A stretch of DNA of 54,142 nucleotides from a virus (IMGVR_UViG_3300022936_000002:1-54142); one strand, 5' to 3'; numbered from the stretch's first letter, positions 3,016-51,237 are shown. Numbers and translations: made by a program. The notes: a model not told the origin generated them from the letters alone.

Positions 3016-3959
3016 TAGTTTGCTGATGGGACGCGGTTTGCGGCTTCAATGCCGGGCACGTAATCTTCGGCGCGACGGTTGATCACGTTGTCGTAGAGCA
3101 CGCACCTTTCAATTGTTCTGTCGCACCCCGCGGTAAAGGTGAAAGTGTCGTTACCCTCGATCGGCAGCGGAAACCGTCGCCGTAACGAAACGCGGTAGCC
3201 GGGGAACACTGTGTTGATCGTCGATATCTCGCGTGCGATGCCTTCGTTCTGCCCGGAAGTGCATTCGAGCTTCCCGTTTGCGAATAATCCGGATGTGTCG
3301 CAGTTTGCAGGGAGATCGCCTGACGAGAAATCTATCTCACCTTCCCCGGCAGCGAGTACGCACGGCACATCGGGATAAACAAGGTCGAAAGTATCGCCGT
3401 TGATAGTTACCGGCTCGCCTAAGTCTCTACCGCACTCCTCGTCCCCGAACTCCCTGCACCGGCAGAGCCTCGATGTAACTTTATTGACGTTGTTCGATAG
3501 CCTGGCGATAGCTCCGCGCCCTTCCGCCGTGAAAAACGTCTGATAGTCCTTGAACTCGCCCAGATTCCCCTTAAAATGAACGAATTCCCCGAGATCGGTG
3601 TTATCCCAACAGGCCGATAAAACCTCGACCGTCGCAAAGTCCCACTTCCCCGCCAATACCTCGATCTGATCGAACGAATCCGAGTTATAGATACCCGTCA
3701 TTTCGAGATTTGACGCCTCATCGAGCCCCGATTCGATCGTTGTGGGAGTGATAGCAGGGGTAGCCTTGAAAACCACGCCCGGACGCCCGGGAAGCGTCAT
3801 ATCCCGCGAGTTGGACGTAAACGCTACTATGTCCGGCCCATACTCCGGTCGGGTCGTTATCTGGATGAGCAGAGCCATACGAGGAGTGGGACTCGACCAC
3901 TGGCCCCAGAAGTCGTCCTGCGTATATGAACCCTGTATATTTTGGATTTCGTGGGGCAT
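3015..3959 (-). CDS. Tail hub protein, DUF2163/BR0599-like
   Basis: CRCREFGDEECG and AGCDRTIERC..NVINRRAE cysteine motifs; synteny. Confidence 0.85.
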   Translation of the reverse strand: MPHEIQNIQGSYTQDDFWGQWSSPTPRMALLIQITTRPEYGPDIVAFTSNSRDMTLPGRPGVVFKATPAITPTTIESGLDEASNLEMTGIYNSDSFDQIEVLAGKWDFATVEVLSACWDNTDLGEFVHFKGNLGEFKDYQTFFTAEGRGAIARLSNNVNKVTSRLCRCREFGDEECGRDLGEPVTINGDTFDLVYPDVPCVLAAGEGEIDFSSGDLPANCDTSGLFANGKLECTSGQNEGIAREISTINTVFPGYRVSLRRRFPLPIEGNDTFTFTAGCDRTIERCVLYDNVINRRAEDYVPGIEAANRVPSAN

Positions 3960-4610
3960 CTATTCGCCTCTTACCTCGACCATCGGAACATCCGGAAGCT
4001 CGATGCGGTAGTGCTCGACCGATCCCGCATCTACCCATTGGTGAAAAGCTTCTGCGCGAAACTCGTCGGTAGCGAACCGCGCAGGAGTATAAAATTCGAA
4101 CGTCGCGAGGATTGAGGCATCCGCAGCCGGCGCGCTCGTAAAGGTAGCGATTCCCGTCGCATAGTTCACGCTGTAATTTGCTTCCGGAACAGGTGTTCCG
4201 TTGATCGCAAAGAACACCGTTCCCGACTTCGGATAGGTGATGACGCGCTTGATCACGCCTCCGACTCCATCGTCGTAATATTTGTAGATCTGGAACTGAG
4301 TCTTTACGCCGTCGGCCTCATCACCGTCGAAGAGCACGATGGAACTGCCCGATACCTTGTAATCCATCCAATCTTTGACCAGAAATGCCGTTTCCCTGCC
4401 CCTGACGGTGTGGAAAAACGCGATAAGCGCGTCAACATCCGCCTTCGTCTTTACCGAGTATTTTGCATCGAAGGATCGAAGCGCGTCCTGCCAGTTGGCA
4501 TTTCTCGATTCGTGGCCGCTCGCACCCGTCGTGATGGTCGTGTTATAACGAACCGTATGACCCCAACGCCCCACCGAAAGCGGATATATTTTATCTAGCT
4601 GAAGACTCAT
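3960..4610 (-). CDS. Distal tail protein, DUF2460-like
   Basis: SGHESRNANW, FFHTVRGR..FLVKDWMDY, FEFYTPARF motifs; directly after tape measure. Confidence 0.88.
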   Translation of the reverse strand: MSLQLDKIYPLSVGRWGHTVRYNTTITTGASGHESRNANWQDALRSFDAKYSVKTKADVDALIAFFHTVRGRETAFLVKDWMDYKVSGSSIVLFDGDEADGVKTQFQIYKYYDDGVGGVIKRVITYPKSGTVFFAINGTPVPEANYSVNYATGIATFTSAPAADASILATFEFYTPARFATDEFRAEAFHQWVDAGSVEHYRIELPDVPMVEVRGE

Positions 4611-7600
4611 GAATTACGCCTTTCCTCCCACCTTGCTTTTGCCATTCCGTCACGAACCCCCCGGCTTGCTGCATCCTGGACCTGACGGGGGTTGCCGCCG
4701 GGCGCGTTAACGTTTACGTGGATCGTCGGGCCGTAGGTCGTGTTATTGTTCGTCGAGGACATGCCCGAGTACGCGCCGACCATTCCACCGCCCGCAAATG
4801 CAGGCATTTGAAGATTGTTCACTTTTTCGAAAAAGTCTCTGCCCCAGAACCGGACGGCGCGGGCGGTGTTCACGAACTCGCCGTTAGATAACCGGGCGAA
4901 TATTGAATCGGACGTTCCGCTGCCAGGTCCCGAGATAAGTCCGCCGGATGCATGGCCGATGAGACCACCGAGCCCGCCAAGCGCGCCCTCTCCAACAGAA
5001 TGCGCCCCTGTTCCTAAACTAGTGGTCGTGGGCGTGCTTGCTGCCGCGCTAATGATCTTCATAATGGCCTGATAGACCATGACTTTTATGAGCTCCTGAA
5101 TGATACCTTGAACGAGTTGAGCAAATCCCTGAAGCATCGAAGTAAAGAACCCTTTGAATGTTCCGTCCCATTTTGCGACGCTGGTCGAGATAACATCAGC
5201 AACGCCAGACACGGCATCCGCCATACTGTCCTTGAAAGCCGTCGAAAATGAGACGGATCGCGCTTGCATCATCCCTATCCGATCCATAAATGTTTCGCTA
5301 TCGGCAATCGTTTTCTCAGTAATTGCTTGACGTATTTCAAGGATGCGCTGCAATTGCGCCGCTTCAAGGATTAATGGTTCCAACGTAGAATAATTGGCTA
5401 TGCGTTGCTTTAAGTCGGCGATGGACTGATAGGTGCCGATTTGATTCAATAGCGCGTCGCTCTCCGTCTTAACGGCAAAAAACTTTTCGGCTCCCACCGC
5501 CTTGATTTGATCGATGGTCGCCTGCAAGCCTTCCGGGCTTCCAAAGAAGGAAGCTAGATCATCCTTATCCTTGCCCTGCTTGAGAGCTTCGCGGGATTGG
5601 CTGAGCTGTTTGATAGCGCCGTTGAGTTGCAGAATCGCCGCGCTCGTTTTGGGTGCTCCGTTTTGCTCAAGATCAGCGAGGTTTTTCTGAAGAGATTGAA
5701 TCACCTCGTCATATTGCGTAACGGCATCGGTACCTTCTCCGCCTCGACTAATTGCGGCGCTCCGGTTAGCCATTTGCGCCGCTATGGCCGATTTCATCTT
5801 AACTTTCTCTAATTCGTAGGCATTGTTAATACGAATTTTCTCGGCTGCAATCAAATCGTTCGTCGTGCCAAGCTCGGTATCGAGTTGCCCGATCTGCGTG
5901 TCATAGCGCAGATTCGCACTTAGCTTCTGAGCTTCGTAAAACCCTTTAGCCCCTTTGGTCCCGTCTCCGATAGCAGATGCAAGTTGCAGAAACTGAATTT
6001 TCACTTTATCGGACAGCGTGGTAGACGCGCGGAAAAATTCAACTAGCTTCGTGGTAGATTTGCTGCCAAAAGTGTCGGGGTTAAAATAAATGTCCGCGAG
6101 ATTGCCTCCTAGATCGCCAATGGCTTTCAACGTGCTGTTAAACGCGTCTCTCCTGGATTGTAAACTGCGTACAAGTTGGTCGTTCTGCTTCTCGGATATA
6201 TCAAGCAATCGACGCCCGCCTTCTTCTGCGAGCTTCGCGACGTCAAGGTTCATTCTAGCGTTGATATTTACACGCTCTTCCGCTGAGAGCGACTCGTCTT
6301 GAAGTTGGAGCGAAGTTTGTTCGCGGATTATGGCGCCGATCTTTGCGTAGGCGCGCTGCGTCTCGTCCGTAATTCGAGAAAATGCCTCCGTTGTTGCCGT
6401 GCCCAGAGAAATGGACGAATCGAAATTAAACGCGGAAGTATCGAGATTAAAGGAGACGGATTCAGACGCAATCTGCTTGAATTCCAGTAGGGCAGACCGG
6501 CGTTGCTTTAGAATTTTGTCTTCCGCTTCTGCTATCTGTTTCGCTGTATTGATCTCATGGAGAGCAAGGTCGGTACTGATCTTCCCAATAGTGCGCGCTT
6601 TATCGTCTTCGATCGCCTCTCGCTGCTTTGACGTCAATCCCAAGATCGCAAGCTCGCTCCGGAAAAATCTTGTCGCTTCCGCTAACTGTTTTTCAAGTCC
6701 CTGTTTTTTTACTTTTGCCAGCTCCCTTACGCCGTCGAGCTCGTCTTGCGATGTCTTTCGTACGCGAGCCGACACCATGGCTTCGTTAACCCGGTTAAAG
6801 CTGTCCGTAATCGCCGACTGAGCGGAGTAACCCCTTTTCCATGTTTCCAATATTTCGGCCGCCGTCTGCTTTGCGCTCTGAGCGGCCTTACTGTCCGCAT
6901 CCTTTAGTTTTTGGGCCTTTTCTAACGCCGTGGTGATCATCTTGTCACCTTCTGTCCGCATCATATTGCCTGCGTCACGCATTGCCTGCCCGGCTTTCGG
7001 ACCGAACATAAAATCATCGCCCGCGTCCTTCAGTCCTCGCATGACGACTAAAAACGGTTGCAGGATGGGCGAAACGTCACCCCGGAAATTCTTCTTGAGC
7101 TCTTCGATGATGATTCCGCCGATGCCCTCAAGTCCTTTCCCAATACCCTCGCCGATTTTCTCGCCGATTACCTGACCCGCCGCATGCCAATCACCGCCCC
7201 GGCTTTGTATTTCGCCGATGGTATCGCTTAAGGCATTATTAATGGCATTTCCCCATGCCGCAAACGTAGCCTGGTTGTCCGTGAGCGCCTTGGATGCAAG
7301 GTTCATCCCTGTGGTGATCGCGGGCGCGAAAGCGAGCGTGAATCTGGCTGCACTGGTTTTTGCCTGCAGGCCAACCATGTCAAGTGTATCGCCGAATTTA
7401 TCTGCTGCGACTATCGTTTCTTTATCAAGAATCAGTCCGAGATCGCGAGCACGTTTGATCACGTCCGGAATACTTCCGCCGAATTCCTTAAGAAAGGGAA
7501 TCATATCGGCACCGGAACGACCAAACCCCTCCTGCGAGGCCTTCATCTGCTCTATGCCTTCGGGGTATTTGAGAATTGTCTGATAAGCCTGCCCCAGTGC

Positions 7601-8326
7601 AGTTTCGAGGTCGTTAGACGTGACGCCAAGGCCAGCCATGGTCTTCTTAGCCTCTTCGTTTCCTTTTTTAGCACTACCGAGCACGCGCACGAACTTGTCG
7701 ATCGATCCGGACACCTCGTCGAAAGATACTCCGCCTTGCGTTGCCGCAAAATTCAACGCTTGCAGTGTGTCAGTAGAGAGGCCCGTCTTCGCTGCTGCAT
7801 CATTGATCATCGACCCGAAGTCTGCGGAAGCCTTTGTTAGCGTGAAAAGCGCGCCGGCGGTAGACTCGAATATCTGCGCGGCCTGGCCCGCCACTTGTGA
7901 TACAGCACTAAAGGCAGCGCCAACACCTGTTAAGACTTGACCTATCTGCGCGAACTTGCCTAGCTGTGACGGGGGCTTGAAGTCTGCGAGACGCGCAGCC
8001 GAATCCTTTAATCGGGTATTGAGCGCATTAGTCGCCCTTTCGGTAGAATTGATCGCACTCTGAAATTGTTTACTATTAATTGCACCACGCGAAAATGCAT
8101 CGGCCGCCGAGCTGAGTTTTTTCTGGGTTTCCGATACCCTCTCTGTCAGCTTCTCATACGATCTAGCTGTGACTGCGGTGGTTTTCCCCAGGTGAACGGC
8201 TTCAGCTTCCTGCTCAGTGATAGCGCGCCCCGTCCTTCGCAATGCCGCCTCGGCATCCCTCAGCGAACCCTCAAACGAATTGGTGTCGGTTCGGAATTCT
8301 GCAAATATTTCGAAAGCGTTTGCCAT
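4607..8326 (-). CDS. Tail tape measure protein (1239 aa)
   Basis: Long Ala-rich helical ORF; C-terminal ASGGLISGPGSGTSDSIFARLSNGEFV motif. Confidence 0.92.
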   Translation of the reverse strand: MANAFEIFAEFRTDTNSFEGSLRDAEAALRRTGRAITEQEAEAVHLGKTTAVTARSYEKLTERVSETQKKLSSAADAFSRGAINSKQFQSAINSTERATNALNTRLKDSAARLADFKPPSQLGKFAQIGQVLTGVGAAFSAVSQVAGQAAQIFESTAGALFTLTKASADFGSMINDAAAKTGLSTDTLQALNFAATQGGVSFDEVSGSIDKFVRVLGSAKKGNEEAKKTMAGLGVTSNDLETALGQAYQTILKYPEGIEQMKASQEGFGRSGADMIPFLKEFGGSIPDVIKRARDLGLILDKETIVAADKFGDTLDMVGLQAKTSAARFTLAFAPAITTGMNLASKALTDNQATFAAWGNAINNALSDTIGEIQSRGGDWHAAGQVIGEKIGEGIGKGLEGIGGIIIEELKKNFRGDVSPILQPFLVVMRGLKDAGDDFMFGPKAGQAMRDAGNMMRTEGDKMITTALEKAQKLKDADSKAAQSAKQTAAEILETWKRGYSAQSAITDSFNRVNEAMVSARVRKTSQDELDGVRELAKVKKQGLEKQLAEATRFFRSELAILGLTSKQREAIEDDKARTIGKISTDLALHEINTAKQIAEAEDKILKQRRSALLEFKQIASESVSFNLDTSAFNFDSSISLGTATTEAFSRITDETQRAYAKIGAIIREQTSLQLQDESLSAEERVNINARMNLDVAKLAEEGGRRLLDISEKQNDQLVRSLQSRRDAFNSTLKAIGDLGGNLADIYFNPDTFGSKSTTKLVEFFRASTTLSDKVKIQFLQLASAIGDGTKGAKGFYEAQKLSANLRYDTQIGQLDTELGTTNDLIAAEKIRINNAYELEKVKMKSAIAAQMANRSAAISRGGEGTDAVTQYDEVIQSLQKNLADLEQNGAPKTSAAILQLNGAIKQLSQSREALKQGKDKDDLASFFGSPEGLQATIDQIKAVGAEKFFAVKTESDALLNQIGTYQSIADLKQRIANYSTLEPLILEAAQLQRILEIRQAITEKTIADSETFMDRIGMMQARSVSFSTAFKDSMADAVSGVADVISTSVAKWDGTFKGFFTSMLQGFAQLVQGIIQELIKVMVYQAIMKIISAAASTPTTTSLGTGAHSVGEGALGGLGGLIGHASGGLISGPGSGTSDSIFARLSNGEFVNTARAVRFWGRDFFEKVNNLQMPAFAGGGMVGAYSGMSSTNNNTTYGPTIHVNVNAPGGNPRQVQDAASRGVRDGMAKARWEERRNS

Positions 8327-8334
8327 TTTAAAAG

Positions 8335-8422
8335 AAAAAAGCCCGCCGAAAAGATCATCATCTTTCTAGCGGGTGGTTGGCCTGAATTACAGGCGACGGC
8401 CCAGTGAGCGGTATTAAATTGT
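8335..8422 (-). promoter_or_regulatory. Conserved late leader/hairpin element upstream of tape measure (copy 1 of 2)
   Basis: Minus strand ACAATTT..GGGCCGTCGC..GCCAACCACCCGCTAGAAA..TTTTCGGCGGGCTTTTTT; similar element at 17478-17559. Confidence 0.6.
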
Positions 8423-8461
8423 CAGTTATATTCTACATCAACCGCGGGAGATTTCAATCAT

Positions 8462-8803
8462 TTATTCGATGCCCCACACGCGAATATAGTACTTCCCCTT
8501 TCCGTCAATCGTAATATTGACCGACTCTGGCGGCACATCAATAAGAAACGTTCTGCTGAGAAACGCCTCGTCGGTATATAGCAACTGAAAAGAAAATCCT
8601 CCGTCCCATCCATTAATGTGAATGCTTTGACTCGAACCTACATTATTACTACTAATGCCGATACGAATCTGCTTGTATTTTGCTGCATTAAAACTCGCGA
8701 CTTCAACGAAGGTCCCAGGCGTTAAATCTTTAAATCCCTTGAAGATTAAGGGTGCCGCCACGCAGTTTGCCGCAAGCAACAAGCTAAGAAAAAGAGCTTT
8801 CAT
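8462..8803 (-). CDS. Small secreted hypothetical protein
   Basis: Signal-peptide-like MKALFLSLLLAANCVAA; AGGAGG RBS upstream. Confidence 0.7.
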   Translation of the reverse strand: MKALFLSLLLAANCVAAPLIFKGFKDLTPGTFVEVASFNAAKYKQIRIGISSNNVGSSQSIHINGWDGGFSFQLLYTDEAFLSRTFLIDVPPESVNITIDGKGKYYIRVWGIE

Positions 8804-8840
8804 AAATCAGCCTCCTAAAAGTGCAACCGATTATAAACTA

Positions 8841-8868
8841 AAAAGGCGGCTAATTAAAGCCGCCTTTT
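8841..8868. terminator. Intrinsic (likely bidirectional) terminator directly after GGY-NN array 1
   Basis: AAAAGGCGGC-TAATTAAA-GCCGCCTTTT perfect stem with A/T tails. Confidence 0.85.
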
Positions 8869-8871
8869 CCC

Positions 8872-8961
8872 TTGCCCTACCTCGCCTGACCAAGCCTGAC
8901 CAAGCCTAACCAAGCCGTGCCCCGCCATTCCGTACCATGGCGCGCCCCGACTCACCAGGCC
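8872..8961 (-). ncRNA. (GGY-NN)18 pentamer array 1; putative guide RNA
   Basis: GGCct GGTga GTCgg GGCgc GCCat GGTac GGAat GGCgg GGCac GGCtt GGTta GGCtt GGTca GGCtt GGTca GGCga GGTag GGCaa; strict 5-nt phase, between the HNH stop and a terminator. Confidence 0.85.
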
Positions 8962-8979
8962 GTATACCCCTTGATAAGC

Positions 8980-9273
8980 TTACTCCCACAGGTGTTTACG
9001 CCAGTCCGGCCCAATTATACCCTTTTTTAGCGCGTTCGCGATCATCCCCCTGTGTCTATGATCGAGCCTCAAAACATGATGCATGCGGCAAAGCACCCGC
9101 AGGTTCGATATATGATTCGTGCCCAGCTTACCAGATCGAATATGGTCACAGTGGAACTCTTCAAAGGTGACGGGATGCTTGCCATAGGGGTACTGGCACA
9201 TCCCGCCATCCCGCTCATAGACGGCCTTTCTCATTTCTTGCCAGATCTCTCGCGGCGGTCGTTGTCGCGGCAT
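8980..9273 (-). CDS. HNH endonuclease
   Basis: VYERDGGMCQY..HCDHI..GTNHISNLRVLCRMHH; start overlaps stop of the RAMP-like gene (TAATG). Confidence 0.9.
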   Translation of the reverse strand: MPRQRPPREIWQEMRKAVYERDGGMCQYPYGKHPVTFEEFHCDHIRSGKLGTNHISNLRVLCRMHHVLRLDHRHRGMIANALKKGIIGPDWRKHLWE

Positions 9274-9956
9274 TATTCCTCAATCTCAAACGAAACGGTC
9301 TGGAAACGGCCGAACCCGATAGCCCGGGCATCCCCAAGACCAACTAGGACTCCGGCATCATTTAGCACACTTTCCATTTGCGCCCGGTTAACCAGCGTTT
9401 TATCCCAGAGAATCTTAAAGGTACACTCCCACCCCGGCGAAGCGGCCAAACGATAACGCACGTTTCGTCCTTTGGTGCTAGGGTTACGAACAGAGCGCAC
9501 ATCGAGATAAACAGGTGCGCTCGTATCGCGTGACGGATCTTCGGCCTTCGTGATATCGAATTTGGCCTCAAGGTCGCCTGCTTCATACAGCCCGATACGG
9601 GGTATCTGCAACCCACCCTCCTTGTTTGCGAACACGGGATAACCGGGCATAAACCTATCGAGCAAAATCTGATCATCCAAAACTTGAAGTGTTGCGGCAA
9701 CGTCTGTCTGAATCGACCCCTTTCCCTTTTTCGTATATTTTGCCGCATTACGCAAGCACGAAAAGATATACGACCCATCGACAAAAAGCTGCCCGGTTTC
9801 TGTAACCATTGCCGATTTTTTCCACTCTTCGGGATCGTTTCCGGCAACGCCCGTGCGTTCCTGTTTTTCGAGAGGCAGTGATGCCTCGGTGAATCTGTGT
9901 TGTAGCAGGGGCCTTACGCCCCTGATCGTGATTGCTGCTCTAATAATATTCGACAT
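9273..9956 (-). CDS. Solo Cas7/RAMP-like protein (Vipr-like putative RNA-guided effector)
   Basis: N-terminal ITIRGVRPLLQH strand, LFVDGSYIFSCL, GWECTFKI, C-terminal G-rich loop AGVLVGLGDARAIGFGRF; no cas1/cas operon nearby. Confidence 0.8.
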   Translation of the reverse strand: MSNIIRAAITIRGVRPLLQHRFTEASLPLEKQERTGVAGNDPEEWKKSAMVTETGQLFVDGSYIFSCLRNAAKYTKKGKGSIQTDVAATLQVLDDQILLDRFMPGYPVFANKEGGLQIPRIGLYEAGDLEAKFDITKAEDPSRDTSAPVYLDVRSVRNPSTKGRNVRYRLAASPGWECTFKILWDKTLVNRAQMESVLNDAGVLVGLGDARAIGFGRFQTVSFEIEE

Positions 9957-9979
9957 ATTTTATTCTCCTTTCCTTAGTT

Positions 9980-10588
9980 TTACCAACATTCTGGACATTT
10001 TGTGCGTTTCTCTCTGATTAACCATCGCACCGACGAAAGGAACGGCTTACTGCCCTTTCGCGTTGCCGAGCACACGCTGCACGTTGCCTCTATTTCGTTA
10101 ATACCCATCCCCAATTCCTCATCTGCCTTCGCACTCGACGGGAATTCGGTGTAGGCAATACTTCCCGCTATAACGCCTAGAAGAACCCATTTGCATCTAT
10201 TTCGATACGGCCCGCGGCGCTTATTAAGAACGGCAGTTGTCCCGTTCGGCTTCGCGATACACGTATCCCCAAAATTGTCGTACGCGTAACCCACCAACAC
10301 TGGCGGGCGCACATCAGCTGATAATTCCACGTCCTGACGCTGCCAAATCGTGAGCGGTTCGCTATCACCGATGCGATCTGAGTACCCCGGCCTCATCAAT
10401 AAGCACGTTCCGTTTTCAATGCCGACGGCGCGCAAGCTATCGTCCTCGATTTGTACTACAGCGTGCAGGCCTTGCGCCTTCAAGACCGAATCGCTTGACT
10501 GATTAGTTGCACCAATATCTTTACCGTGCCGCCGAATAAAGCCGTTTTCAATCTTTGTGACTTTTTCTTTTGTGGTAATATTTCTCAT
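9980..10588 (-). CDS. Hypothetical protein: degenerate S24/LexA-like domain plus C-terminal Zn ribbon
   Basis: VQIEDDSLRAVGIENGTCLLM resembles V.GDSM..GI..GD; CSVC..CPEC. Confidence 0.55.
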   Translation of the reverse strand: MRNITTKEKVTKIENGFIRRHGKDIGATNQSSDSVLKAQGLHAVVQIEDDSLRAVGIENGTCLLMRPGYSDRIGDSEPLTIWQRQDVELSADVRPPVLVGYAYDNFGDTCIAKPNGTTAVLNKRRGPYRNRCKWVLLGVIAGSIAYTEFPSSAKADEELGMGINEIEATCSVCSATRKGSKPFLSSVRWLIREKRTKCPECW

Positions 10589-10658
10589 ATATTTAGTTCC
10601 TTTCCTAGGGATTAAATGAAGGGCTTTCCAGGTTTGCGCTTTGGAAAGCCTTTCGCCA

Positions 10659-10901
10659 TTAACCGAATAGCTCCTTAATCATCCCGGCCAGTTTAAGAAA
10701 TGCCGTTGAAGGCATATAGCCGTAAGCAATGCGTTTTACATTATTAGGATCGACGTGCTCAGCGACAAATCCGTGATGACGTGTTGAGTGGACAACAACG
10801 GAACCATATTGCGTTTCGATTTCCCCTGCTCGACCAGAGCCGACAACTTGATCTAACTTTCGTAGTGTCGGCCAGTGCTCCATGTCTATGTTATTTATCA
10901 T
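10659..10901 (-). CDS. Hypothetical protein, first gene of the leftward cassette operon
   Basis: 80-aa ORF with GAGG RBS downstream of a consensus promoter. Confidence 0.7.
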   Translation of the reverse strand: MINNIDMEHWPTLRKLDQVVGSGRAGEIETQYGSVVVHSTRHHGFVAEHVDPNNVKRIAYGYMPSTAFLKLAGMIKELFG

Positions 10902-10946
10902 ACTTACCTCACCGTATTTGTTTAGTTAATTACTTAACTAATAATG

Positions 10947-11039
10947 ATTTTACATTACGCGTATATACTTGTCAATAGTATATCGTATAGATATATCATT
11001 TATTTTCTTGACGCGTATATACGTGTTGTGCTATACAAT
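10947..11039. promoter_or_regulatory. Divergent sigma70 promoters, each containing ACGCGTATATAC (putative RHH operator)
   Basis: Minus strand TTGACA(10975-10970)-17-TAAAAT(10952-10947); plus strand TTGACG(11008-11013) then TATACAAT; 12-mer at 10957-10968 and 11011-11022. Confidence 0.75.
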
Positions 11040-11043
11040 AGGT

Positions 11044-11208
11044 ATGGCGAATAAAGGGAAAGAAAAACTGGAGAACGACGCCAATGTTTCGGTAAAGCTC
11101 CCATCCGCGCTGCTTGAAAAAGCGCGGGCGAAGTCTCGGGAAACAGGCGTGTCCATATCTTTTATTGTCCGGAAGGCTTTAGAGGAATGGGTAGCTAAAA
11201 GTAATTAG
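11044..11208 (+). CDS. Ribbon-helix-helix (CopG/Arc-like) regulator
   Basis: NVSVKLPSALLEKARAKSRETGVSISFIVRKALEEW; probable ATG at 11044. Confidence 0.85.
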   Translation: MANKGKEKLENDANVSVKLPSALLEKARAKSRETGVSISFIVRKALEEWVAKSN

Positions 11209-11226
11209 GTTCTATCGATCTTTTGC

Positions 11227-11296
11227 GGCGTGGTACAGCCAGGCTGGGAGAGGCGGGGCACGTTGTGGTGGGGCGGGGTTTGGTTTGGCAAGGTTT
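11227..11296 (+). ncRNA. (GGY-NN)14 pentamer array 2; putative guide RNA
   Basis: GGCgt GGTac AGCca GGCtg GGAga GGCgg GGCac GTTgt GGTgg GGCgg GGTtt GGTtt GGCaa GGTtt then T-rich tract; same GGCAAGG 3' end as array 1. Confidence 0.82.
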
Positions 11297-11309
11297 TTAT
11301 TTTGATGCC

Positions 11310-11627
11310 CTACTCTAGCTTCTTTAGCTTTTCTAGTATTTTTTTGCGGAGCGTTTCTTTACCCTGCCACGCCGCGGGTATAAGATAGGGCTGTGACGCC
11401 ATGCGGCTTGTGCCGAATTCCACGAATCCGGCGTGGGGGGCCGTGAACCCAACGCGTGATACATTGCCTTCGTGCTCTACCTGCATAGAATCGCGTAGTT
11501 CCCCTGTTCGTACAGGTGCGTTGCGCTGAGCGGTCACGCCAACCTCTTCGGCGGTTTCTACGCGCGCTTCATCTACCGCCGCCTTCGCCGCCGCCGTGAT
11601 CACGCGGATCCTGCTTACGATTCTCAT
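11310..11627 (-). CDS. HK97 gp10-like tail completion protein
   Basis: APVRTGELRDS..HAGFVEFGTSRMASQPYLIPA. Confidence 0.9.
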   Translation of the reverse strand: MRIVSRIRVITAAAKAAVDEARVETAEEVGVTAQRNAPVRTGELRDSMQVEHEGNVSRVGFTAPHAGFVEFGTSRMASQPYLIPAAWQGKETLRKKILEKLKKLE

Positions 11628-12165: not shown

Positions 12166-12582
12166 TTAGTAGGTCGAAGTTGCAATAGCGCCGTCCAGGG
12201 TGATCTCGGCCGTCAGTTCCATTACCGAATTGATCTCGATAGGATTGCCCACCTTGTGAATATGGACCGCGCCGGTGTACTTCGGATTGCCGCCCGTGCT
12301 GCCGATCGGGCCGAACTGGATGTTAACGGTGTTATCGCCGAGCAGGGCAGCGTGCAGCTGCGTAAAGATCGCGGCACTGTAGTAAAACGTCACCGAGAAC
12401 GTGGCACCGTACAGCCCTTTAAGGTTCGCCTTCGAGCCGTTGTTATTGAAGGTGTTCGCTTCCAGTAAGTCGCGCTCGATGTCATATCCTGCGCTCTTTA
12501 CGCTATTGGATAAATCAACGAGGGTTGAGGGTGTTCCGGTCGATCCCAGACGAAAATCTAAATTCTTTCCAACTGTAGGCAT
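12166..12582 (-). CDS. Major tail (tube) protein
   Basis: 138 aa directly upstream of chaperones; QFGPIGSTGGNPKYTG, ends LDGAIATSTY. Confidence 0.75.
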   Translation of the reverse strand: MPTVGKNLDFRLGSTGTPSTLVDLSNSVKSAGYDIERDLLEANTFNNNGSKANLKGLYGATFSVTFYYSAAIFTQLHAALLGDNTVNIQFGPIGSTGGNPKYTGAVHIHKVGNPIEINSVMELTAEITLDGAIATSTY

Positions 12583-12591
12583 AATATCTCC

Positions 12592-13332
12592 TTAAGATCC
12601 TGTGTAATTAAAGCTCATCGCGACTGCGACGGTATTCGTAGTTCCATCCGGGTTAGCGGCAACGCGCACGTAGCGGTTAACTGTGTCGTCCGTTTCTATG
12701 ATCTGCGTGCCGGTGTTGATCTCGTAGGTCGTATTTGTGATCAGGTCCACCCATACCGAGTTATTTGTCGAGTGCTGAATAACAACGTTTGCAACGTCAT
12801 CGCCGGCGAGAACATGAATTTGGGCGGTAAAGCCCGTAGATGATGCGCCGTTGTCGTAACTCGCGCCGTTCGTTGCGCCCGTTACAGTCTGGTTGAAGAG
12901 CCACACCCCATGCTGATAAGCCACTTTCCCGGCGCTCTGCGTGGAACTACCCGAAAGGCTCGCCATGATCAGACTGCCGGCCTCAATACCATCGATCGAA
13001 TACTTCGCGGTGTTGAGGTTGAGCATTACCGCTAAATCGCCGATAGTGAAACCGTCACCGATACTGAACATCATTAACTGCTCGTCATCGCTTGAAACGG
13101 CGCCTTGGAAGATGGAGTTGATCAGCACTTCAGCGTCGGGGTCGAACTCGTTGAACCCTTCGGCGGTCATTTCAACCGCATGCAGGCCCTTGGCGTTCTT
13201 CTTCGCTCCTGCACCGCAGAAGACATTTGCATCCATCAGGTCGCGCGATGCGTCGAGGCCGACCTTCTTGAGATAACAAGATAGGTCCCACCCGTTCAAA
13301 ATTACTTTTTCGCTTAAGCTTACCTGTGGCAT
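12592..13332 (-). CDS. Tail-tube-like paralog with C-terminal extension
   Basis: DLSCYLKKVGLDASRDLMDANVF..KGL aligns with DLSNSVKSAGYDIERDLLEANTF..KGL of the next gene. Confidence 0.65.
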   Translation of the reverse strand: MPQVSLSEKVILNGWDLSCYLKKVGLDASRDLMDANVFCGAGAKKNAKGLHAVEMTAEGFNEFDPDAEVLINSIFQGAVSSDDEQLMMFSIGDGFTIGDLAVMLNLNTAKYSIDGIEAGSLIMASLSGSSTQSAGKVAYQHGVWLFNQTVTGATNGASYDNGASSTGFTAQIHVLAGDDVANVVIQHSTNNSVWVDLITNTTYEINTGTQIIETDDTVNRYVRVAANPDGTTNTVAVAMSFNYTGS

Positions 13333-15162: not shown

Positions 15163-16236
15163 TTAGTACATCGGCGAACCGTAGTTCGTCGGGATTGCAT
15201 AAGTACCGTTGCCGATACGCGCTACGACGGCACCGACACGATTCCACGCACCGAAACCGGCACGACGGATGTACTGGCTCTCGTAGAAGGGGTGGTCATT
15301 GCGCTCCGCGACCTTGTTGAAACCGCGCAGGCTGTCTTCCACGTCCTCACGCATCGCAAGCGGACGATCGCCGCCCGTGGTAGTTGCGACCATGTAGCTA
15401 TCCGGCAGGCTCTTCCATTCCACGATCCAGCACTTGTCGGTGTAGCCGATAACGCGGCCCGGAACCTGGGCATCGAGATTGCCGACGAGGGTCGAAGTGT
15501 TCACACCTTCGCGGATGTTGGGATCGCCCTTTTCCTTGAAGTTCGCCAGCGCCTCAATCGAAGCCGTCAGATTTGACGGTACGAGCACAATGACCTCGCC
15601 CGAGTTCTCCGGGTGGGACATCAGCGCGTTATAGATGCCGGGGAAGGGATTGGTAGCATCCGCGATACCCGAAGCCTGCGCGATATAGTTCGTTGCGGTT
15701 GTCGGGGCATCTGCGCCGGTTAGCACGTTGTACACGGTCGAATCGCCGTTCGCAAGGCCCTGAATGGTCAGGCTTCCCCACTCTTCGTCGATAAACGTCC
15801 ATCCGTTGGTCGTGCTGAAAAACAGCGCGGCGAGGATGTGATCGCGGACCCATCGAGCATCGGCCATAATGAGCGTGCTTACTGCGTCGTTCACGTCCTG
15901 GACCCGCATTTTCTGCGAGGTGACGTAATCCGCGCCCCATGCTCCGCCTGCCATCTGAATCGGATAACCGACATCATACGAGCCCGCGGGCTTGATCGGC
16001 AGCGCGCGGCCGTTATTGTCGAGCGGCTGCAGACGGGCAGCGCTTACGGTCTTGAACCGGGTCTTATGCGCCGTTGTCCGGGTAGCGAACATCGAAATGA
16101 GCGCGTCAATCTGACGGTTGTGCTCATTGAGCGTGGTTACGATCGCTTTATCCATAACCTGAACGCCGACCTCAGTAACGCGCTTCGCCATGAGGTCCTT
16201 CATATTGTGAAATCCGTATAGGATCTGATTAGCCAT
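15163..16236 (-). CDS. Major capsid protein
   Basis: 357 aa after scaffold/decoration genes; C-terminal RRAGFGAWNRVGAVVARIG. Confidence 0.85.
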   Translation of the reverse strand: MANQILYGFHNMKDLMAKRVTEVGVQVMDKAIVTTLNEHNRQIDALISMFATRTTAHKTRFKTVSAARLQPLDNNGRALPIKPAGSYDVGYPIQMAGGAWGADYVTSQKMRVQDVNDAVSTLIMADARWVRDHILAALFFSTTNGWTFIDEEWGSLTIQGLANGDSTVYNVLTGADAPTTATNYIAQASGIADATNPFPGIYNALMSHPENSGEVIVLVPSNLTASIEALANFKEKGDPNIREGVNTSTLVGNLDAQVPGRVIGYTDKCWIVEWKSLPDSYMVATTTGGDRPLAMREDVEDSLRGFNKVAERNDHPFYESQYIRRAGFGAWNRVGAVVARIGNGTYAIPTNYGSPMY

Positions 16237-20760: not shown

Positions 20761-22044
20761 TTAGTTCATGCTCATTCCGCGAAATGCGGCTTGCTCGCGG
20801 TCGGTGACTTCGAAGGGCCGAAGCTGTGTCTCTATCCCGTATCTCATGGCATCCATAAGATGGTTAACCGCGTCGACGGGTTCATCGTCCATAAATCGAC
20901 CGTCCTTTTCCTTCCACGAATAATTTTGGATCTCGCGGAATAAGTCTTTCCCGCCAGCGACGAGTTTCAGGTTGTACTTCTTGACTGCGTTAATGCCCTC
21001 GACTACCGATCCTTTGTATTTCGTGCAGGCCTTTACGTTGAATCCCGCCTGTTTCAGGTCCTCGATCATCTCCGGCCGTGACGAGTCCGCGATGATATAT
21101 TTCTTGCGGTCGACGCCAAGGTTATTCATTCTGTCGATCAACATGGTCGACGTCAGGTGCGTCTCGTATAAGAGCTCTTTTACGAAGTAATCCTTTTTGA
21201 GCGAATTGAAGTTATCCTGCACGGCACCGGCGATAAGCGCACAAGGATGGTTGAAGCCAAAGTCCAGGCCGTAGAATTGAGCCTCGGGCATATCCGACTC
21301 GGGCGCATAGTCCGGATATATAAGGCCTTCCGAGTTCTGTCCCCATTCTCCAAGTCCATAGACCTTGTAATAGTTCGGATTCGTGTCTTTAAGAGCCTCG
21401 ATGGCGGGCGCATAGTTCGGGTCAACGGCCAGCATCTTTTCGTTATCGCGATAGGTCGATTTGAAAATGTAGTGTGCCGCCGGCCGGTTCTGGTGTATCT
21501 CGGTATTCAGCCAGTGATGGACGTTTATAGGGTTATAGCTGAGCGTGATCTGCACTTCATCGAATCCGCGAAGCCTTAGCCGAAGCTGGTCCAATTCGTT
21601 CTGCGATGTGAGCTCCGTAGCCTCCTCGATCCAGATACGATCGACTCCGGAGATAGACTTCACCTTTTCGATATCGTCGAGCCCCAGGAAGATGAACGTA
21701 ACACCGGTTATCTTATTCGTGATCTGCAGCGGGCTTTTCAGGATATCGAAACAGTCGTCGAGATTCCATTCGTAGATAACGGTTTTAAGCTCCGAATAGC
21801 AGCTATCCTTGAGCGTATTGAAGACTTTGCGGACAACAAGGGTCTTACGGTTCCTTCGGTGAGACTGGAAGCTTAGAGCGGTCTCCTTTTGGGCTTCGAA
21901 ACGCGACTTACCCGAACCCGCCGAACCGAACAGGTGAAGGAATTCCGACTTGTTTGCAAACAGCGGGATATACGCGCGGTTGTAGTTGCGCGGGTCGCTG
22001 AAGTCGAAGGTCTTCACTTTCTCTATTTGGGCGTTTTGGGTCAT
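20761..22044 (-). CDS. terL: Terminase large subunit (PBSX family)
   Basis: GSAGSGKS, GLDDIEKVKS, IWIEEATE, GLDFGFNHP, NHLMDAMRY. Confidence 0.95.
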   Translation of the reverse strand: MTQNAQIEKVKTFDFSDPRNYNRAYIPLFANKSEFLHLFGSAGSGKSRFEAQKETALSFQSHRRNRKTLVVRKVFNTLKDSCYSELKTVIYEWNLDDCFDILKSPLQITNKITGVTFIFLGLDDIEKVKSISGVDRIWIEEATELTSQNELDQLRLRLRGFDEVQITLSYNPINVHHWLNTEIHQNRPAAHYIFKSTYRDNEKMLAVDPNYAPAIEALKDTNPNYYKVYGLGEWGQNSEGLIYPDYAPESDMPEAQFYGLDFGFNHPCALIAGAVQDNFNSLKKDYFVKELLYETHLTSTMLIDRMNNLGVDRKKYIIADSSRPEMIEDLKQAGFNVKACTKYKGSVVEGINAVKKYNLKLVAGGKDLFREIQNYSWKEKDGRFMDDEPVDAVNHLMDAMRYGIETQLRPFEVTDREQAAFRGMSMN

Positions 22045-49873: not shown

Positions 49874-50116
49874 ATGAGCACGGACGACGAAAAACGATTA
49901 GAAGAGAAATTGGACCAAGTTATCGACGCTCTGCCGATCATCTACGCCTTGGGGGATCTTCTTGTCACCCGGGGAGAGGTAAACCGCACCCGGGGGCTGA
50001 ATAAGAATACCATCGCCCAGAACGATGGAATCGCCACATTCGAGCCGGTCGGTATTCGTAAGACCCTGATCGAAATAAAAGATATTACTGTGCTGCGAAA
50101 AAAGCGCAAACGCTAA
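49874..50116 (+). CDS. Putative excisionase / recombination directionality factor
   Basis: 80-aa ORF with basic C-terminus converging on the integrase. Confidence 0.45.
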   Translation: MSTDDEKRLEEKLDQVIDALPIIYALGDLLVTRGEVNRTRGLNKNTIAQNDGIATFEPVGIRKTLIEIKDITVLRKKRKR

Positions 50117-51237
50117 TTGATCGAATCCGTCTCTATTATCGGCCCGCTTATCACTTCCCTGTACTTCTTCACAAAAGCCTCGTCTAAATGCGAATATCGA
50201 ACGTTTGTCGAAAGGTGCACCTGCCCGAGCAATAACATTCTTTCCATGTCATTAAATTGAGGCATGAGCAGGATCTTCGAATTATAGTAGTGCCGAAAAT
50301 CTCGCAGCCATATACCCTTCACGCCGATCGATCGACAAAGCGTTGCCCACGACCGCCGAAAGGTGGTAATCGGAAATATAATATCTTCCGGTGAAGGGTT
50401 TGTGCGGAGATGCAGCGCTCTTAATCCAGTCTCAAGCTCCCGCGATGCCGGCACAACCCTTTCCTTGCGAATTCTTCCTTTATAAGAAACTAACCTGACG
50501 GCTTTGAAGTCGAACTCGAGAACGTGCGCCCACGTTAACGGCTCCCGGATCACGCTATCGTCAGAAGCATTGAACGGATGGATCTCCGACGGTCTGGCGC
50601 CGGTGTGCATGGCAACAAGTATTAGATAATGCAAAAGGGGCTGCTCGGACTTCCGGGACCGCGCGAGCAGGCGTTTAGCGATCCTGTCCGTTAGAGGTGA
50701 TTGCCGCGGCAGCTCCAAGGCGATCTCAATAAGATTCTCCCCAAAATCGAACGGACTTTCTTTTACCCATTTTCGAGACAACGCTTTTTTAAACATCGTC
50801 CGCATTAAAGCAAACTCGCGGTTTACGGTGGCGATAGATACGTGCTTCAGTCTTTCCCTTTTATACCGCCTTAAGGTGTCCACGGAGATCGTAGTGAGCT
50901 GATGCAGGCCGAACTGCTTTACCAGGTGCGCCAAGGTGTACCGCTGCGCCTTCCACGTCCGCACGCCGATCAGCCGCTTCCCTGTTTGATAGACCGGGGG
51001 TATCAAAAATTCTCGCTCGTACCACTCTGCCAGCCAAGTAAAGGTTTTATTCGAAACATTCTCAGCCTGTGGGTTATCGAGCATGGCAAGTGCCCATTGC
51101 CGAGCCTCGGTTTTGCTCGAAACTTTTTTTCTTTTTTTCTTATATTTGCCGTTTCCGAGAGGAATATTTACAACCGCGTATAGATCTCCGTCTATGATCG
51201 CGGTGTAATCCCCGTACCGGCCTCGTTTCTTAGGCAT
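50113..51237 (-). CDS. int: Tyrosine integrase
   Basis: ATVNRE, TGARPSEI, RDFRH, LGQ..TNVRY; adjacent attP. Confidence 0.92.
   Translation of the reverse strand: MPKKRGRYGDYTAIIDGDLYAVVNIPLGNGKYKKKRKKVSSKTEARQWALAMLDNPQAENVSNKTFTWLAEWYEREFLIPPVYQTGKRLIGVRTWKAQRYTLAHLVKQFGLHQLTTISVDTLRRYKRERLKHVSIATVNREFALMRTMFKKALSRKWVKESPFDFGENLIEIALELPRQSPLTDRIAKRLLARSRKSEQPLLHYLILVAMHTGARPSEIHPFNASDDSVIREPLTWAHVLEFDFKAVRLVSYKGRIRKERVVPASRELETGLRALHLRTNPSPEDIIFPITTFRRSWATLCRSIGVKGIWLRDFRHYYNSKILLMPQFNDMERMLLLGQVHLSTNVRYSHLDEAFVKKYREVISGPIIETDSIN

Follow-up and report, generated by a model that had tools for sequence, protein, structure and literature searches.

A probable HNH-paired VIPR system in the tail-gene region of a temperate siphovirus-like phage, with a candidate target in a sister phage

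Vipr, its HNH partner and two pentamer arrays

We analyzed IMGVR_UViG_3300022936_000002, a complete virus record that has direct terminal repeats and a length of 54,142 bases; the full length is referred to as the window. Between its HK97-gp10-like gene and its tape measure gene lies a cassette that encodes a RAMP/Cas7-like protein and a small HNH nuclease and that carries two noncoding arrays of pentamer units. Very probably, the cassette is a moron in the tail-gene region of this temperate siphophage and encodes a VIPR (Viral Interference Programmable Repeat) system together with an HNH nuclease. The class itself has already been described (10.64898/2026.04.26.720920), with further papers since (10.64898/2026.10.15.759431, 10.64898/2026.10.21.760802), and the locus is a member of it. 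The core features are as follows.

9273..9956, minus strand: vipr, encoding a 227-amino-acid (aa) RAMP/Cas7-like guide-binding protein with its G-loop at residues 206-218
8980..9273, minus strand: gene for a 97-aa HNH nuclease (Vipr accessory protein, Vap), whose start overlaps the vipr stop
8870..8974, minus strand: vrRNA1 array (array 1), 21 YNNGG units, ending in GGCAAGG
8840..8869, minus strand: intrinsic terminator closing the vipr operon and vrRNA1, with a 12-bp stem (6 GC pairs) followed by a T-run
11224..11293, plus strand: vrRNA2 array (array 2), 14 YNNGG units, 11 of them strict, ending in GGCAAGG and followed by TTTTTATTTT

According to the available text of the founding preprints, Vipr protomers coat the vrRNA, hold the GGY, and present the NN pairs, and the filament binds double-stranded DNA through a gapped R-loop and blocks transcription (10.64898/2026.04.26.720920, 10.64898/2026.04.26.720927), with one protomer per repeat and every third target base skipped (10.64898/2026.04.26.720927). 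As the original prediction had it, the 227-aa open reading frame (ORF) ends in a RAMP-type G-rich loop (...GLGDARAIGFGRFQTVSFEIEE). Pfam held no family for this protein, and the PHROGs held only an unnamed one. A word-index search returned 1,579 homologues, the few named ones being labelled hypothetical, and an exhaustive search returned 432 cluster representatives. When the single sequence was searched with phmmer against all PDB sequences, there was one match, the Vipr protein of Escherichia phage SUSP1 (36pp_D, E = 2.7e-4). The same protein was again the sole match for a profile of 37 close homologues (E = 6.5e-8), and a profile of 50 diverse homologues aligned to residues 1-190 of its 202 with E = 2.3e-29, the next match being Csm5 at 4.4e-4. 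Structure prediction, which had been proposed as the check on a RAMP fold, bore that fold out. The AF2 model (pLDDT 84.7, pTM 0.81) had Csm3 subunits as its top matches both in Foldseek (best, 2.1e-8) and in VIA-align, where Z reached 11.0 for Csm3 9g9a_D (rmsd 4.3, 160 aligned) and for Csm3 6ae2_B (rmsd 3.8, 151 aligned), and the first 36 VIA-align rows were CRISPR RAMPs without exception.

The likeness extends to individual residues. In the SUSP1 protein, the bases of each GGY are contacted by H17, R138, D177, W178, and R179, as given in the available text (10.64898/2026.04.26.720927). Alignments to SUSP1 show four of these five contacts to be kept (H17 as H20, R138 as R169, D177 as D209, and R179 as R211), while W178 is changed to A210. 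R169 and R211 are invariant across the 50 homologues, and the G-loop GLGDARAIGFGRF aligns to that of SUSP1. From the mapping of R138 to R169 on the model, we infer that the hairpin at residues 149-172 is probably the thumb. That the 227-aa protein is a homologue of the characterized Vipr with a RAMP fold is strongly supported. Relative to homologues of about 207 aa, it carries a 21-residue insertion at residues ~108-128 (window 9573-9635, minus strand), in a low-confidence region of the model; homologues P0124 and P0139 have other insertions in the same loop.

With the Cas7 family of class 1 CRISPR systems (Csm3, Cmr4, Csf2), Vipr shares the fold (Z 9-11) and a glycine-rich loop near the C-terminus and, as far as the preprint text at hand goes, a helical filament on guide RNA with periodic base flipping. 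In contrast to Cas7, which steps by 6 nt on both guide and target, VIPR takes steps of 5 nt along the guide and 3 nt along the target, and its guide is an array of fixed trinucleotides rather than a spacer. Unlike class 1 CRISPR-Cas systems, the locus has no Cas5, Cas6, Cas8, Cas10, Cas1-Cas2, or CRISPR array. The absence of cas1 and of a CRISPR array had been noted at the outset and held on inspection: a search for Cas1 (PF01867) in the whole phage record was empty, with the same search matching 7 of 14 control genomes, and a search of the record for CRISPR-like spaced repeats found none. Likewise, no Cas protein was found among 38 large ORFs scanned against the PHROGs.

The arrays had been described as strictly periodic in 5 nt, with 18 and 14 units. 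In the YNNGG register the periodicity stands, as does the count of 14 for array 2, but array 1 has 19 to 21 units rather than 18. Over 8870-8964 it comprises 19 units, 16 of them strict, and 21 are reached (to 8974) when two degenerate 5' units are counted. Both arrays exceed the minimum of 4 tandem units beside vipr that is used for VIPR systems. Nowhere else in the window is there a run of at least five YNNGG units. Across 200 shuffles that preserved dinucleotides, the longest run had 3 units in 107 shuffles, 4 in 85, 5 in 7, and 6 in 1. The two arrays are more than chance. Both also end in GGCAAGG before a terminator or T-tract, as claimed; behind the end of array 1 come GAAAA and then a 12-bp hairpin with T5. 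Folded together with the terminator hairpin, array 1 reaches -64.4 kcal/mol (z = -5.2). An Rfam scan returned only STnc250 at E = 0.7.

We compared the locus with 53 IMG/VR loci and 64 loci from bacterial genomes (117 in total), the latter spanning Acidobacteriota, Armatimonadota, Bacillota, Chloroflexota, Chlamydiota, Cyanobacteria, Verrucomicrobia, and Actinomycetota. An HNH homologue adjoins vipr at 31 of 53 viral and 59 of 64 genomic loci (90/117). The search for homologues with adjacent pentamer arrays, suggested earlier as a check, found arrays of at least six strict units at 35/53 viral and 45/64 genomic loci (80/117); these counts are lower bounds, since arrays broken in register, such as those of L011, are missed by the strict rule. 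All but one of 171 arrays lie directly beside vipr or hnh, and at 33 loci an array sits between the two genes. Relative to vipr, 164/171 arrays keep to one strand, and the remaining 7 lie upstream on the other strand, as array 2 does. In a set of 115 distinct arrays, G fills 95% of positions 4-5 and C or T 96% of position 1, with a mixture of bases at positions 2-3. CAAGG is the last unit in 29 of these arrays, compared to 8.2% of internal units, so that the GGCAAGG ending appears to be a tendency of the clade. From these sequence comparisons, the standing of vipr and hnh as a conserved core is strongly supported.

Despite this conservation, it could be that the arrays act at the level of DNA, as G-rich repeats, protein-binding sites, or recombination scars, and that the RAMP-like protein works on some other RNA. 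A search of sequencing runs for the stretch gave a single match, which was a DNA run and may be the source sample, with no RNA run listed. In addition, the fold of array 2 does not go beyond that of shuffles (z = -0.84), and terminator-like sites after the last array are barely commoner on the array strand (15/73) than on the opposite strand (9/73), a difference that is not decisive. We nevertheless find this explanation hardly credible. Published arrays of the same repeat form are transcribed, copurify with Vipr, and have been solved in complex with it, according to the preprint text available (10.64898/2026.04.26.720920, 10.64898/2026.04.26.720927). The published signature is a constant GG and Y combined with variable NN, the strand relative to vipr is kept in nearly all of the arrays counted above, and the residues that hold GGY are conserved.

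The HNH gene is translationally coupled to vipr, in line with the original prediction: the TAA that stops vipr overlaps by one base with the ATG that starts the HNH gene (TAATG, 9271-9275). Its product matches PHROG HNH families (best, 2.3e-11). Against the Pfam HNH family, it scores 17.9 bits, under the cut-off of 21.4, and 35 of 35 aligned members of its family match that Pfam entry. Residues C26, D43, H44, N53, C62, and H66 are invariant in the family alignment, leaving the catalytic D-H...N...H intact, and the AF2 model has a pLDDT of 92.9. Judged by its sequence, this is a small HNH protein with no other domain and no DNA-binding domain of its own. When the model was searched against the PDB, nothing matched with an E of 0.001 or lower, and nearly all of the weak top rows were HNH nucleases. 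PADLOC returned only a weak ZorE-type HNH match (E = 0.0027). The structural neighbors include HNH Cascade entries (8yb6_A, 8zlu_B, 9siu_A, and 8z0l_F), all weak (E 0.26-1.3). Like the HNH Cascade variants (Cas5-HNH and Cas8-HNH, type I-E/I-F), the present system would pair an HNH nuclease, predicted to cut the bound DNA, with a guide-bearing RAMP filament. In those variants, however, the HNH is fused to a Cascade subunit, whereas here it is a separate protein of 97 aa.

At residues 26-32 and 62-66, where most relatives have Cys-pair motifs, the window HNH reads C...H and C..H (CQYPYGKH, CRMHH). Since L001, L108, and L117 have the same pair of changes, the presumed metal-binding site seems to have a Cys-His variant that is conserved.

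It is possible to read the HNH as a passenger, that is, as a phage HNH of the homing or packaging type that moves along with the cassette while the system only silences transcription, as in type II. Phages commonly have small HNH genes that stand alone (PHROG HNH families), the cassette itself is an insertion, the window HNH lies under the Pfam cut-off, and no Vipr-HNH fusion was seen among the 8 longer homologues inspected. Yet a passenger would have to explain the adjacency at 90/117 loci over Acidobacteriota, Bacillota, Chloroflexota, Cyanobacteria, Chlamydiota, and others, the overlap of stop and start codons, and the arrays placed between vipr and hnh. Furthermore, nuclease accessory genes occur only in types III and V in the preprint text available and are read there as target destruction (10.64898/2026.04.26.720920). 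We regard the passenger explanation as improbable.

The match to VIPR, suggested at the outset, is supported by homology to SUSP1 Vipr, the RAMP fold, and the conserved arrays and HNH, together with a candidate target that follows a 1-nt skip. With the type II system of SUSP1 (Vipr, Vap1, and vrRNAs), the locus shares a homologous Vipr (profile E = 2.3e-29), YNNGG arrays beside the gene with one of them upstream or divergent, residence in a phage without cas1 or a CRISPR array, and a candidate target that belongs to a competing mobile element and that is read on the 1-nt skip rule with the skip at the wobble position. It differs in several respects. The Vipr sequence is distant (single-sequence E = 2.7e-4) and has lost the G-loop W178, and the accessory protein is an HNH nuclease rather than the DNA-binding Vap1. 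The arrays reach up to 21 units, compared to the 9-16 given in the available reports of VIPR arrays. Their 3' end is GGCAAGG with a plain terminator or T-tract, in contrast to the conserved, pseudoknotted tail of about 40 nt in the SUSP1 clade. Finally, instead of a satellite recombinase, a sister phage's structural gene is the predicted target.

With no pseudoknotted tail and no Vap1, the locus lacks the features of the type II clade. It is most likely VIPR type III, an assignment made from the nuclease accessory gene and by elimination from the preprint text rather than from a tree. HNH Vaps are listed there among type II, III, and VII examples, 44 of 63 type III guides have IMG/VR matches, and types III and V show enrichment within cellular defense islands; the nuclease-bearing branch is described so far by genomics and small-RNA sequencing only, in the text available (10.64898/2026.04.26.720920). 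A literature search found nothing specific on HNH-type VIPR systems. The present locus resembles type III in having vipr with a predicted nuclease accessory gene, but it lies in the tail-gene region of a complete temperate phage, and 53 IMG/VR contigs carry the clade.

Insertion site and candidate targets

Placement of the cassette can be judged against a sister phage (G001), a complete IMG/VR phage of 39.8 kb that lacks Vipr and whose proteins are collinear with those of the window phage. The features of the window that enter this comparison are as follows.

4607-8326: tape measure gene, 1239 aa
8327..11309, no strand: whole inserted segment, from the tape measure start to the gp10-like gene, including orf113
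11310-11627: HK97-gp10-like gene (Pfam E = 5.6e-9)
5141..5182, minus strand: own tape-measure site, homologous to the predicted vrRNA2 target (SVAKWDGTFKGFFT), with 8/14 NN, below the 80% rule

In the sister phage, only 7 bp separate the gp10-like gene (8920-9252) from the tape measure gene (6480-8912), and the whole of 8327-11309 is therefore an insertion in the window phage. The comparison thus upholds the original placement of the cassette as an insertion between gp10 and the tape measure gene, which is new for this locus. Most cassette genes are on the minus strand, in the order promoter, orf80, orf202, vipr, HNH gene, array 1 (8974-8870), and terminator (8869-8840). On the plus strand, divergent from the vipr operon, a ribbon-helix-helix (RHH) gene is followed by a 15-nt gap, array 2, and a T-tract. 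The cassette resembles prophage superinfection exclusion systems and tail-operon morons in having its own promoter, regulator, and terminator between structural genes and in being present in the carrier temperate phage and absent from the sister. Unlike in those systems, specificity here would come from predicted guide RNAs, not from a membrane or repressor protein.

To predict targets, we used the rule in the available text of 10.64898/2026.04.26.720920, in which each GGY is replaced by one free base and a match of 80% is the cut-off. Within the window, the best matches were 8/21 for vrRNA1 and 8/14 for vrRNA2, and other skip lengths did as well; by this measure, the window is without a self-target. 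The first 8 units of vrRNA2 had 7 matches in IMG/VR, one of which (L089), located in G001, extends to 12/14 units (86%) and so passes the cut-off. The site lies in the tape-measure gene and is in frame, with each NN at codon positions 1-2 and the skip at the wobble (AVTQWDGTAKGFFK). Only a skip of 1 gives this match, and skips of 0, 2, and 3 give 6-7. The homologous site in the window phage itself matches at 8/14, below the 80% rule, and is thus not a self-target. Since vrRNA2 is of the same sense as the mRNA, its predicted pairing partner is the template DNA strand rather than the transcript. From these sequence matches, vrRNA2 appears to be aimed at a conserved tape-measure stretch of sister phages that lack the system, a candidate target that is new here.

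The rest of the target searches were negative. Units 5-13 of vrRNA2 had 0 matches in IMG/VR. For vrRNA1, three IMG/VR seeds and one metagenome seed yielded no candidate target: units 12-20 had 0 matches in IMG/VR, units 8-15 had 34 (best total including the seed, 11/21), units 3-10 had 2 (9 and 8 of 21), and units 8-17 had 1 in metagenomes, in the seed only. These vrRNA1 seeds can miss targets with two or more well-placed mismatches. The tape-measure C-terminus found G001 as its sole IMG/VR relative in an alignment search and no relative as a single protein, and it found 2 other proteins in a set of 5.8 billion.

Even for a genuine VIPR system, the tape-measure match of vrRNA2 might be a coincidence helped by a shared motif, the true targets of both guides being unsampled elements such as satellites, unrelated prophages, or other VIPR loci. 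Part of the match does come from the motif WDGT.KGFF (W-D-G-T and G-F-F), which is conserved in tape-measure genes, the window phage's own included: 8 of the 12 matched units also fit that gene, leaving 4 extra units as the discriminating signal. Moreover, a single target-bearing genome was found, vrRNA1 gave no target, and most type II guides target not structural genes but satellites or lysis-lysogeny switch regulators, in the preprint text available (10.64898/2026.04.26.720920). Against coincidence, the 12/14 match exceeds the preprint's 80% rule. None of 2000 permutations of the vrRNA2 units scored above 9 in G001, and 58 natural guides of similar length from other loci reached at most 10/15 there. 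The other skip lengths fell to half the units or fewer, and the site is in frame with its skip at the wobble. Finally, among 2.9 million viral contigs, the match falls on the one detectable sister of the phage. We consider coincidence unlikely on balance, but it is an explanation to be taken seriously.

A 15-unit guide of an unrelated VIPR-HNH locus (L026:4748-4822) matches the tape-measure core motif of the sister phage (8337-8381, QIQSKGKISAEEINQ) at 10/15 and in frame. The broader idea that guides of related loci favor tape-measure genes was rejected: the L026 match, which is no more than suggestive, was the one such result in 222 guide-genome tests, with the remainder noise-like.

Other elements of the cassette and the phage

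Besides vipr, hnh, and the arrays, the inserted segment and the remainder of the phage carry the following.

10947..10975, minus strand: sigma-70-like promoter of the minus-strand operon (TTGACA-17-TAAAAT, 11/12), a consensus match only
10659..10901, minus strand: orf80, first gene of the minus-strand operon; at 0/53 viral loci, no family match
9980..10588, minus strand: orf202, in the vipr operon; at 0/53 viral loci, no Pfam, PHROG, or PADLOC match
10949-10972 and 11003-11026, no strand: two operator-like 24-nt repeats, 83% alike, between the divergent genes
11044..11208, plus strand: gene for a 54-aa ribbon-helix-helix (Arc/CopG-like) protein, 15 nt before vrRNA2
8462-8803, minus strand: orf113, a 113-aa ORF with a hydrophobic, signal-peptide-like N-terminus, between the terminator and the tape measure gene; not in G001
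12166-13332: major tail proteins (PHROG scan)
15163-16236: major head protein (PHROG scan)
20761-22044: large terminase (PHROG scan)
50113-51237: integrase (PHROG scan)

By these PHROG scans, the window is a temperate siphovirus-like phage. The content of the cassette differs from the original prediction in that it consists of the vipr-hnh core together with orf80 and orf202, neither of which is conserved with vipr, and the RHH gene. The RHH gene matches Pfam RHH_1 above cut-off (4.6e-6) and the PHROG Arc-like repressor (3.3e-4). The two 24-nt repeats, whose palindromic core (ACGCGTATATAC / GTATATACGTGT) is 92% complementary, overlap the minus-strand promoter and, from their sequence, look like operators for the RHH protein.

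At L011 (3724-4001), the starts of the RHH gene and vipr are only 143 bp apart, without orf80 or orf202. In the window, the ribosome-site and start regions of vipr and orf202 (9944-9974 and 10576-10606) are 74% alike over 31 nt, and the proteins begin with MSNII and MRNIT, respectively. Because of the spacing at L011 and the likeness of the two starts, orf80 and orf202 look like a later insertion into the cassette. A protein-atlas structure of orf202 is weakly LexA/peptidase S24-like (TM ~0.5, model pLDDT 0.55), which is a lead only. The gap between orf80 and orf202 holds a 13-bp inverted repeat (10618-10654) that is 92% complementary, has an 11-nt loop but no T-run, and might serve in RNA processing or attenuation. 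Just upstream of the tape measure start there is a promoter-like site (8430-8457, minus strand, TTGAAA-16-TAGAAT), from which the tape measure gene might again be expressed behind the terminator.

Two homologous loci have a layout that matches that of the RHH gene and array 2. In each, a small HTH_17 gene (L002:2105-2305 and L003:2689-2904, both minus strand; Pfam 1.6e-11 and 3.3e-6) stops 5-6 nt short of an opposite-strand YNNGG array that lies upstream of vipr. At L002, a gene directly upstream of vipr (3502-3957, plus strand) encodes a 151-aa protein with an HExxH motif (EFHELGHYF), which we take to resemble ImmA/IrrE-type metallopeptidases. If this family name holds, the VIPR system of L002 would sit beside a prophage immunity region.

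Proposed mechanism and meaning

How might such a cassette act? Both arrays would be transcribed, vrRNA1 from the vipr operon up to its terminator and vrRNA2 behind the divergent RHH gene. One Vipr protomer would bind each pentamer and sequester its GGY, and the exposed NN pairs would read double-stranded DNA as NNx NNx, with every third base skipped. In this way, vrRNA2 would pair with the template strand of the tape-measure gene of a sister phage, while the carrier's own gene, which differs at 6/14 units, would be spared. The conserved, coupled HNH with intact catalytic residues and no other domain suggests that the bound site is cut; that is, the HNH would be brought to the site and would cut the rival genome. 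As a result, related phages would be excluded or outcompeted in a lysogen or in a mixed infection.

We put forward this HNH-armed, tail-operon VIPR system as a possible, though not yet a probable, RNA-guided DNA-cutting exclusion system against sister phages, with a guide that reads codon positions 1-2 and a guide supply tied to the switch of the cassette. Several observations count against the main reading of the cassette as a VIPR system with the mechanism given above. Along with the DNA-only sequencing match, the missing Vipr-HNH fusions, the four-unit discriminating signal, and the lack of a vrRNA1 candidate described above, the strict rule shows no array at 18/53 viral and 19/64 genomic loci, the gapped pattern of vrRNA2 had 0 matches in the genome and metagenome contig collections, and the type III label was reached by elimination.

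To the known class, the locus adds a phage context, an insertion site, and a candidate sister-phage target. It would also give independent support for a wobble-aligned code with a 1-nt skip in a Vipr clade distant from SUSP1, and it indicates that the HNH branch is common in viruses (53 IMG/VR contigs) and occurs in at least eight bacterial phyla, beyond cellular defense islands. The carrier phage and its sister without the system, which has a 12/14 site in an essential structural gene, make a testable natural pair for the nuclease-bearing branch. If the HNH were shown to cut at the bound site, a 227-aa filament protein and a 97-aa nuclease would together form a very small RNA-guided DNA nuclease. 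If the proposal is true, synonymous escape would be impossible, as the wobble base is skipped, and nonsynonymous escape would be costly in a constrained tape-measure motif, while the carrier would be protected by the few amino acids in which its own site differs. The placement of a guide behind a small repressor gene, seen also with HTH_17 genes in at least two other loci, would then tie the supply of guides to the cassette's switch.

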